A stretch of DNA of 44,283 nt from Escherichia phage CEC_Kaz_2018, in sequence record NC_073070.1. One strand, 5' to 3'. Every line of letters begins with the position of its first letter. The stretch's first letter is position 1. Shown piece after piece: positions 37,091 to 37,132 of the stretch. The position numbers and the translations under genes were made by a program. A model generated the notes under the pieces. It was not told the DNA's origin. It saw only the letters and a list, made by a program, of their open reading frames with translations, and did not search any database.

Positions 37091-37132
37091 TTGGTGTGCA
37101 ACCAAAATAGCAGGGTGCCAGGCCGAATGCAA
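37091..37132 (-). promoter_or_regulatory. sigma70-like promoter (TTGCAT-N17-TATTTT) with TTGGT-N5-ACCAA dyad over -10/+1
   Basis: dyad TTGGTGTGCAACCAA 37091-37105 is the exact reverse complement of the dyad at 26405-26419. Confidence 0.5.

Follow-up and report, generated by a model that had tools for sequence, protein, structure and literature searches.

Organization of the window

The window analysed here is the whole stretch of 44,283 nucleotides (nt) from Escherichia phage CEC_Kaz_2018 (NC_073070.1), and our subject is a short asymmetric box, TTGGTTGC, that recurs in its putative promoters. The genes of DNA metabolism form a plus-strand arm (40424-44283 and 1-8414). The minus-strand arm runs from 40201 down to 8442 and holds, in this order, the genes for a helix-turn-helix (HTH) protein and a primase-helicase, small genes, and those for lysis, a phosphoesterase, the terminase, the head and the tail. 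The primase-helicase operon begins with the HTH gene, which stops 10 nt short of the primase-helicase gene. There are also small plus-strand islands at 10346-10630, 26388-27560 and 33857-34057. The last of these is doubtful: the annotated open reading frame (ORF) of 66 amino acids (aa) has no family match, overlaps a minus-strand terminator and a two-box promoter, and is probably not a gene. An Rfam search of the window gave no family matches.

A short box concentrated in non-coding DNA

In its fuller form the box reads (A)TTGGT(T/C)GC(A/G/C), and the window has about twenty copies of this element of 8-9 base pairs (bp). We counted 17 copies of TTGGTTGC where 1.7 were expected, 9 of TTGGTTGCA (0.46 expected) and 3 of the dyad TTGGT-N5-ACCAA (0.03 expected). 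An earlier note on this DNA had proposed a family of half-sites and dyads at promoters, whose frequency should exceed the background expectation. It does so for the dyad, for TTGGTTGCA and for TTGGTTGC, as none of 100 whole-window shuffles reached the observed counts. The most over-represented 9-mer of the window is ATTGGTTGC, with 11 copies against 0.5 expected.

Most copies lie outside genes. TTGGTYGC has 15 copies wholly within the 2,873 nt of non-coding DNA, where shuffling gave a mean of 0.18 and a maximum of 3 in 2000 shuffles, and just 6 across 41.4 kb of coding DNA. Similarly, 18 of the 29 copies of TTGGTT fall in the non-coding 6.6% of the window. Three coding copies (19096, 11516 and 32276) drift and are unconserved in relatives, another (15746) is retained in all four comparable genomes, and all four are treated as chance. 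We accepted TTGGTCGC as a variant of the box (2559, 34000 and 21558), which reads TTGGTTGC in many relatives.

Boxes in the cores of promoters

Almost all intergenic boxes lie inside a readable arrangement of -35, 16-18 nt and -10 upstream of a gene. Promoters were called by reading the hexamers and by their position before genes; in a generic scan, sigma70-like sites were no commoner than in shuffles. The boxes and their promoters, with conservation among relatives where counted, are the following.

2547..2566, plus strand: tandem boxes, TTGGTTGC at 2547-2554 and nTGGTCGC at 2559-2566; the first overlaps the -35 TTGCTG (2551-2556); conserved in 14/14 and 13/14 relatives.
2574-2579, plus strand: -10 TATAGT of the promoter with the tandem boxes 2547..2566, preceding the Cys4 zinc-ribbon gene 2611-2784.
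5489..5521, plus strand: promoter P5493, TTGCAT-17-TATATT; box 1 (5489-5497) is the -35, box 2 (5506-5514) is in the spacer; 9/9 conserved.
7165..7194, plus strand: promoter P7165, TTGCAG-18-TATAGT; spacer box 7179-7187 and imperfect reverse box GCAGCCAAT at 7167-7175.
10283..10328, no strand assigned: inverted variant boxes TTGGTTGA and TCAACCAA flanking a hairpin, in the divergent gap before gene 10346-10630; position 10283 reads TTGGTTGC in four relatives.
21558..21565, minus strand: variant box TTGGTCGC, where the -35 of an extended -10 promoter (TGATAATAT at 21537) would be.
26377..26419, plus strand: promoter P26377, TTGCAA-18-TATATT, driving the plus-strand island that includes the Nmad5 gene; spacer box 26391-26399; a second box (26405-26413) begins on the final 2 nt of the -10, and ACCAA at 26415-26419 makes the dyad.
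34000..34037, minus strand: promoter (T)TGACT-18-CATACT, upstream of the phosphoesterase gene 33836-32694 and within ORF 33857-34057; reverse boxes right after the -35 (34023-34031) and right after the -10 (34000-34007).
36546..36574, minus strand: promoter TTGCAA-17-TACAAT, whose -35 is the reverse box TTGCAACCAA (36565-36573); 17/17 conserved.
37091..37136, minus strand: promoter TTGCAT-17-TATTTT, the originally flagged site, upstream of gene 37075-36770; -35 box 37128-37136; a second box (37097-37105) overlaps the -10 end and +1, and TTGGT at 37091-37095 completes the dyad; boxes conserved in 17/17 and 16/17.
37220..37227, plus strand: box TTGGTTGn, between promoter 37091..37136 and an iteron array; TTGGTTGC in 17/20 relatives.
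37589-37596, 37535-37542 and 37500-37507, minus strand: three direct boxes ATTGGTTGCC just 3' of the primase-helicase gene, adjoining the GGGACAA iteron array.
40216..40261, minus strand: promoter of the HTH/primase-helicase operon, TTGACA-17-TAGTTT; the dyad TTGGTCATTAACCAA begins 2 nt beyond the -10, and the Shine-Dalgarno sequence and ATG 40201 come next.
40326..40334, plus strand: variant box TTGGTTAGC within a short promoter-to-terminator unit (40275-40365).
40378..40407, plus strand: promoter of the rightward DNA-metabolism operon, TTGACA-18-TATCAT; reverse spacer box TGCAACCAA at 40391-40399; 18/18 conserved.
43183..43211, plus strand: promoter of the single-stranded DNA (ssDNA)-binding protein gene, TTGACC-17-TAGATT; reverse spacer box GCAACCAA at 43197-43204; 17/18 conserved.

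Within these promoters some boxes lie on the -35, giving TTGG+TTGCAT or TTGCTG at 2547, 5489 and 37129, and TTGCAA from a reverse box at 36565. Others occupy the spacer, in forward orientation at 5506, 7179 and 26391 (each 1 nt from the -10) and at 2559, and in reverse orientation at 40392, 43197 and 34023. The -10/+1 junction is covered at 26405, 37098 and 34000, and by the dyad at 40216-40230.

The five promoters for which the earlier note had claimed a box or its complement beside the -10 (5493-5521, 7165-7194, 26377-26406, 40378-40407 and 43183-43211) do carry it, 1-2 nt away. The sequences it quoted exist, and so do its three dyads: TTGGTTGCACACCAA at 26405-26419, the exact reverse complement at 37091-37105, and TTGGTTAATGACCAA at 40216-40230. 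The dyads are not placed identically, as it had supposed, since the dyads at 26405 and 37105 begin within the -10, on its final two bases, and that at 40230-40216 starts 2 nt after it (TAGTTT-cg-TTGGTC...). Two further half-sites that it reported are real but lie one base away, at 34023-34031 and 36565-36573, and about ten boxes were missing from its inventory (2547, 2559, 34000, 37220, 37500, 37535, 37589, 10283, 10321, 21558 and 40326).

Two structures near these promoters deserve mention in their own right. On the plus strand, a stem-loop with a T-run at 5522-5549 (-17.2 kcal/mol, z = -2.6) stands between the -10 of P5493, which it directly follows, and gene 5569-6033, and resembles a terminator or attenuator close to the promoter. 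The unit at 40275-40365, also on the plus strand, starts with a strong promoter, TTGAAA-17-AATAAT with an upstream TG, followed some 30 nt on by a stable hairpin (-16.9 kcal/mol, z = -2.5) and nine T. The unit spans about 55 nt, has no ORF or Rfam match, is conserved genus-wide and is recognisable in three distant relatives of the window (L019, L021 and L023, see below). It may encode a small RNA or serve as an attenuated leader.

Conservation of the boxes

Dhillonviruses are common virulent coliphages that are used in phage collections and in studies of defence systems. The window is co-linear, base for base, with one of them, Escherichia phage B2 (MG581355.1, genus Dhillonvirus), with the same length and coordinates; 4,030 positions differ (9% substitutions, mostly at third codon positions), 70 are N, and there are no indels. 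Because length and coordinates match exactly in the presence of 9% substitutions and 70 N and without an indel, the comparison suggests that the window is a reference-guided consensus, obtained by mapping the reads of another Dhillonvirus onto B2. Over 30-44 kb the nearest record is vB_EcoS_L-h 1M (95.8%).

Four complete Dhillonvirus genomes (B2, HK1, bob and WF5505) all contain the three dyads, along with 18-23 copies of TTGGTTGC. Across 4-20 Dhillonvirus relatives the promoter boxes show 97-100% identity, against 75-93% in the 40 nt on each side. The gap 40201-40424 is conserved throughout, so that footprinting is uninformative there. At promoter 34000..34037, B2 has the canonical GCAACCAA at both box places.

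The distant relatives L019, L021 and L023 are stronger evidence of conservation than this site-by-site comparison. They keep the gene order with a primase-helicase just 65-69% identical, and they have boxes at the equivalent syntenic promoters, even though the flanking sequence can no longer be aligned. TTGGTTGC ranks first among the 8-mers of L021 (13 copies against 0.7 expected) and of L023, and L019 has 13 copies. The pair at 2547 and 2559 recurs in L019 and L021, and the layout of promoter 34000..34037 recurs in L021 at 15304. The view that one regulon-like family of cis-elements is common to many promoters is thus upheld by enrichment, intergenic location and conservation.

The conserved unit is the box, not the dyad

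Only 3 of the about 20 sites are dyads, and single boxes and direct repeats predominate. Boxes occur singly or as direct repeats, 9-54 bp apart, and either orientation is used; the spacings in the window are 12, 14, 17, 31, 35 and 54 bp. TTGGT-N5-ACCAA is absent from L019, L021 and L023 despite their box enrichment and shared HTH domain. These three have one reverse box GCAACCAA upstream of the HTH gene, where the window has a dyad, and their rightward promoter carries a tandem pair of boxes 9 bp apart; at other places their spacings are 13, 16 and 17 bp. Because the dyads are missing from these relatives and the spacings vary, the conserved unit, as judged from the sequence comparison, is the asymmetric 8-9 bp box TTGGTTGC. 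The dyads are an arrangement specific to Dhillonvirus, in which a full box has a weak partner. We therefore reject a dimeric repressor on a palindromic operator, which the earlier note had favoured: a fixed-spacing inverted repeat is found at 3 of about 20 sites, and at none in L019, L021 and L023.

Iterons and probable late promoters

Iteron-like arrays of TTTGTCCCGC (GGGACAA) occur at 20427-20820, in the tail-gene region, and at 37297-37460, just 3' of the primase-helicase gene. Both are joined to one conserved module of ~60 nt, CCCAGTCTTTCAGACTAGACGGGGG...CCCCCCTCGTCTGAGACTGAATA, and the ORFs annotated in B2 at the arrays (20426-20518, 20490-20681 and 37297-37554) are probably spurious. By analogy with the ori/crr pair of P4, the two arrays could form a two-part replication origin. 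The iteron repeat is GGTGCCA in L019 and TTGCGAGT in Klebsiella phage 37P2; comparing the C-termini of the primase-helicases between iteron types gave no clear link.

The structural genes have another kind of promoter. Five of the six window matches to the extended -10 motif TGnTAnnAT are on the minus strand, before the terminase (32634), scaffold/capsid (26342) and tail genes (21537, 20463 and 17778). This set includes the tape-measure gene and has no good -35; two of its members share ATCGCTGATA, and four of the five have no box. By gene content only, these promoters look like a separate late class. Behind the box promoters lie the regulator/primase operon, the DNA-metabolism arm, the accessory genes and the Nmad5 island.

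A candidate reader of the box

The candidate reader is encoded at the head of the primase-helicase operon.

39872..40201, minus strand: gene of the 109-aa protein, candidate box reader; residues 47-106 hold a three-helix HTH.

Residues 65-106 of the protein match the Pfam families HTH_23 (score 28.0, cut-off 24.6), Sigma70_r4_2 (26.8, cut-off 25.7) and HTH_28 (25.3, cut-off 25.0). Its gene is labelled as a Gam-type RecBCD inhibitor in B2, bob and others; Gam families are absent from its Pfam and PHROG matches, and the label seems to be a propagated annotation. The name 'transposase' of PHROG 9366, which it also matches, is likewise unsupported. The homologues form 24 clusters, exclusively from this phage group. 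Their N-terminal 45 residues are hypervariable and unalignable between lineages, residues 47-106 are nearly invariant, and this HTH half is conserved far above the rest of the genome. An AlphaFold model (pLDDT 83) has a 48-residue helix followed by three short helices (HTH 73-108). A sequence search of solved structures returned only a designed repeat protein. Apart from the 109-aa protein, no HTH was found among the about 20 small window proteins scanned.

We sampled 41 viral loci gathered via the primase-helicase. All 19 loci with the HTH domain (16 plus L019, L021 and L023) have 3.7-14.8 boxes per 10 kb, and 18 of the 26 loci or genomes without it have 0-2.2. Salmonella phage SE1 and the E. 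coli phage buks (Jerseyvirus) have one box copy each. The protein is a reasonable candidate for the reader, because it is the sole HTH found among the small proteins scanned, its DNA-binding half is highly conserved, and a site lies at the +1 of its own promoter.

Discussion

The TTGGTTGC box is almost certainly the binding site of a regulator. Tentatively, and at a little less than an even chance, we favour a regulator that feeds back on the early and middle promoters or shuts them off, and that leaves the late extended -10 promoters untouched; in Dhillonvirus this would probably be the 109-aa protein. A sequence-specific DNA-binding regulator would bind TTGGTTGC in the cores of sigma70-type early and middle promoters, namely those of the HTH/primase-helicase operon, of the DNA-metabolism arm from 40424 round to 8414, of the accessory genes 37075-34074, of the phosphoesterase gene and of the Nmad5 island. 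The bound protein would compete with RNA polymerase, because the boxes lie on the -35, in the spacer or over -10/+1, in either orientation and in no fixed register; the outcome would be repression or feedback limitation, including at the regulator's own promoter. Varied positions and orientations at promoters with good hexamers favour the operators of an occluding repressor over the sites of a positioned activator. With its long helix and an HTH like sigma region 4 or HTH_23, the 109-aa protein may use one box per HTH, and would then have no need of a dyad. The extended -10 promoters of the structural genes, being mostly box-free, would escape this regulation.

What the analysis shows is the enrichment of the boxes, their place in promoters, their conservation, the HTH domain and the site at the promoter of the HTH gene itself; that a regulator binds, which protein it is, whether it represses and when the genes are expressed are inferred, the last two from gene content only. 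Several observations weigh against this reading. A Foldseek search of the model against the Protein Data Bank (PDB) gave only generic HTHs (LuxR/NarL-type, IstA/transposase and resolvase), with non-significant E-values of about 1. More importantly, the box occurs where the protein does not. Box density is 4-5 per 10 kb in seven loci (L041-L046 and L062) and in Klebsiella phage 37P2, a cultured relative of theirs. The loci have no 109-aa homologue in any frame, and none was found in 37P2 by tblastn (E above 0.9) or by a profile hidden Markov model (HMM) on six-frame ORFs (E above 10). The syntenic slot of 37P2-like phages is occupied by a 78-aa Cro/CI-type HTH_3 protein, whose recognition helix is unlike that of the box-less Guernseyvirinae and whose own promoter is box-free. 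Next to the primase gene, the iterons change by lineage (GGGACAA, GGTGCCA, TTGCGAGT) while the box is constant, which is unusual for a specificity encoded by the phage. Finally, in locus L036 the HTH protein has diverged and the site at its own promoter is degenerate, while all remaining boxes are intact.

In 37P2 (13 copies against 1.4 expected) and in the seven loci, the boxes are in layouts that match those of the window; in 37P2 these are TTGG+TTGCAA-17-TATAGT at 732 and 23540, a spacer box at 7086, a reverse spacer box in TTGACA-17-TAACGT at 16750, and a box after the -10 at 20684. Because this group keeps its boxes without a homologue, the 109-aa protein would be either not the reader or functionally replaced in the 37P2 lineage. 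The earlier note's choice of this protein as the regulator thus gains from the C-terminal HTH and the site over its own +1, and loses from the boxes of the 37P2 group. The retention of the box in a lineage without the candidate protein is a small but real puzzle on how regulator-operator networks survive the replacement of genes.

Alternatively, the boxes would be real regulatory sites with another reader, either a conserved enterobacterial host protein or a phage protein shared with the 37P2 lineage, in which case the HTH protein would act elsewhere, for example with the co-transcribed primase-helicase. We regard this as somewhat unlikely. The 37P2-like phages have the boxes without the HTH protein, the box is constant while phage-specific iterons switch between lineages, and the 78-aa Cro-like protein of 37P2 fits single asymmetric boxes poorly. 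One candidate for such a reader is the zinc-ribbon protein encoded at 2611-2784 on the plus strand, which has 57 aa, a Cys4 motif (CxxC...FHKYTG...DGHRAECKxCR) and a basic tail (KERERQRRYR). Its sequence makes it a possible nucleic-acid-binding protein. It is conserved in Dhillonvirus, L019, L021, 37P2 (61% identity over 26 residues) and SE1, and paired boxes precede its gene in both box-bearing groups, yet SE1 is box-less. The only protein common to the window and 37P2 without a counterpart in SE1 is a Dam-type methyltransferase, which we reject as the shared reader: we regard its distribution as a phylogenetic coincidence, because the box lacks adenine on its top strand and is non-palindromic. 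The flank preferences also differ, ATA-box in Dhillonvirus against ATG-box-AATAT in 37P2, which argues against one common reader. As for the host, the box is not used at promoters in T1 and buks, two phages of E. coli, nor in Salmonella phage SE1, and our literature search found no E. coli factor with this site; we know of none. It is unlikely, in our view, that a host factor or RNA polymerase itself reads the box in Dhillonvirus and the 37P2-like Guernseyvirinae, with the highly conserved 109-aa protein competing or modulating at the -35-like boxes. If it were true, neither lineage's own syntenic regulator would be the reader, and two phage taxa would have tied almost all of their early and middle promoters to an uncharacterised enterobacterial protein or to RNA polymerase.

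The remaining explanations take the box for something other than an operator. It could be a positive promoter element, either an activator site or the signature of a middle promoter class, as is the T4 MotA box and as the fixed AATAGCAC element of T1 appears to be. The promoters at 5493, 7165 and 26377 have it in identical register, TTGGTTGCN + 1 nt + TATAnT, as does L021 (TTGGTTGCG-g-TAACTT), several boxes themselves supply the -35 (TTGG+TTGCAN), and related phages own a promoter-linked consensus, AATAGCAC in T1 and tgAATAGTa-ccTATTat-T in Kagunavirus fBC-Eco01 (PMC9825357). Yet the boxes range from -39 to +5, in either orientation and with varying spacing, as is typical of occlusion, some lie over +1, and the -35 and -10 hexamers of the promoters are good already (up to 11 of 12, in TTGACA/TATCAT); such an element is quite unlikely. 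A role in replication, with boxes acting as 9-mers like those of DnaA that flank the origin and aid the loading of the primase-helicase, would make the promoter copies secondary. It would account for the 3-4 boxes beside the iteron array and a conserved hairpin 3' of the primase-helicase gene, found in all box-bearing lineages of the Dhillon clade examined (the window, L019, L021 and L023), and for the HTH gene heading the primase-helicase operon, but about 15 of 20 boxes are inside promoters far from the iteron arrays, and the second array (20.4-20.8 kb) has none; we consider it very improbable. That the boxes have no function, being the product of chance, composition or the recent duplication of one promoter cassette, is barely credible. 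The regions 7150-7194 and 26362-26406 do share aaaattc(a/g)cTTGCA upstream, beyond the box, and the gap 40201-40424 is conserved as a whole and not box-specifically. However, none of 100 whole-window and 2000 intergenic shuffles reached the observed counts, boxes persist at syntenic promoters where the flanking DNA no longer aligns, and most coding copies are unconserved.

In a scan of IMG/VR for paired boxes, the matches listed were largely chance hits or tandem 27-bp repeats in coding sequence. One unrelated viral contig of 19 kb has, at L104:2800-3250, a dense array of TAATTGGTTGCATCC, which shares its core with the box, immediately before an ORF of 219 aa with a stretch resembling an HTH; the similarity of this ORF to the 109-aa protein is non-significant, and the array is probably an independent iteron or packaging-site system.

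Comparison with known systems

Searches of the literature on the motif and on the promoters of Dhillonvirus/HK578 and of Guernseyvirinae found no paper describing the TTGGTTGC box; two genome papers give PHIRE predictions, only for other genera, and we found no description of the transcription programme of Dhillonvirus. Several familiar sites were considered and set aside. The PdhR box of the GntR/FadR family, ATTGGT-N3-ACCAAT, has the half-site ATTGGT/ACCAAT in common with ours, but the dyads here have N5, the unit extends asymmetrically (TTGGTTGC) and is mostly partnerless, and TTGGT-N3-ACCAA has no copy in the window. Sites of the lambda CII or P22 C1 type (a direct repeat TTGC-N6-TTGC straddling the -35) also have none, with 2.8 expected. 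By inspection, a sigma-54 promoter (TGGCAC-N5-TTGCA, whose GG and GC elements are separated by 10 bp) does not fit, as GG and GC are 4 bp apart within a box and 13-21 bp apart between boxes, never 12; nor do CytR octamers, as the positions after GTTGC vary, nor the boxes of DnaA, IHF, OmpR and Mar.

Promoter-linked boxes of other phages come closer. Like the T4 MotA box and the boxes of T1 and Kagunavirus, ours is a short element tied to the sigma70-type -10 of a phage gene class. In T1 (L082), AATAGCAC lies 3 nt upstream of a TTGTTA/TTGCTA -35 at 16 promoters (16 copies against 0.9 expected); a second 9-mer, CTGACTGGT, is enriched there as well (14 against 0.4). In Kagunavirus fBC-Eco01, the PHIRE consensus tgAATAGTa-ccTATTat-T stands beside a TATTAT -10 (PMC9825357). 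Those boxes are fixed in position and orientation, whereas the box of Dhillonvirus ranges from -39 to +5, in both orientations, with a normal -35. A middle promoter of the T4 MotA type, where a fixed box at about -30 replaces the -35, is rejected on the same positions, orientations and -35 hexamers.

The candidate protein has its own parallels. It resembles the HTHs of the NarL/LuxR-FixJ type and of sigma-70 region 4, matching Sigma70_r4_2 and HTH_23, and its model superposes best on HTHs of the LuxR/NarL type and of transposases and resolvases. Like NarL heptamers, the boxes occur singly and as direct and inverted repeats at varied spacing, and like the targets of sigma-70 region 4, the box contains the -35-like TTGCA and TTGGTT. 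Unlike NarL or sigma-70, the 109-aa protein has no receiver or ligand domain and no other sigma regions, and the structural matches have E-values of about 1.

The closest likeness in logic, along with the NarL heptamers, is to the dispersed operators of temperate phages. The C1 repressor of P1 and gp71 of mycobacteriophage L5 act at many dispersed asymmetric operators or 'stoperators', with sites of 17 and 13 bp. As in those systems, one short asymmetric site is present in well over ten dispersed copies that overlap promoters, and single sites would suffice, which implies one DNA-binding domain per site; in the window the non-coding copies are many and far above chance, and by hexamer reading they overlap core promoter elements. 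The differences are that C1 and gp71 are immunity repressors of temperate phages whereas Dhillonvirus is virulent, that the box has 8-9 bp, that the reader proteins are unrelated, and that the sites of L5 are biased in orientation relative to transcription, whereas the boxes of Dhillonvirus lie in both orientations within the promoter core. What is gained is a map of about ten box-bearing sigma70 early and middle promoters, a separate extended -10 late class and one candidate regulator. Should the boxes be operators, mutations in them or in the regulator would open a way to manipulate the early-to-late switch and would help in engineering these phages. The box network is a so far undescribed example of a kind of system already known.

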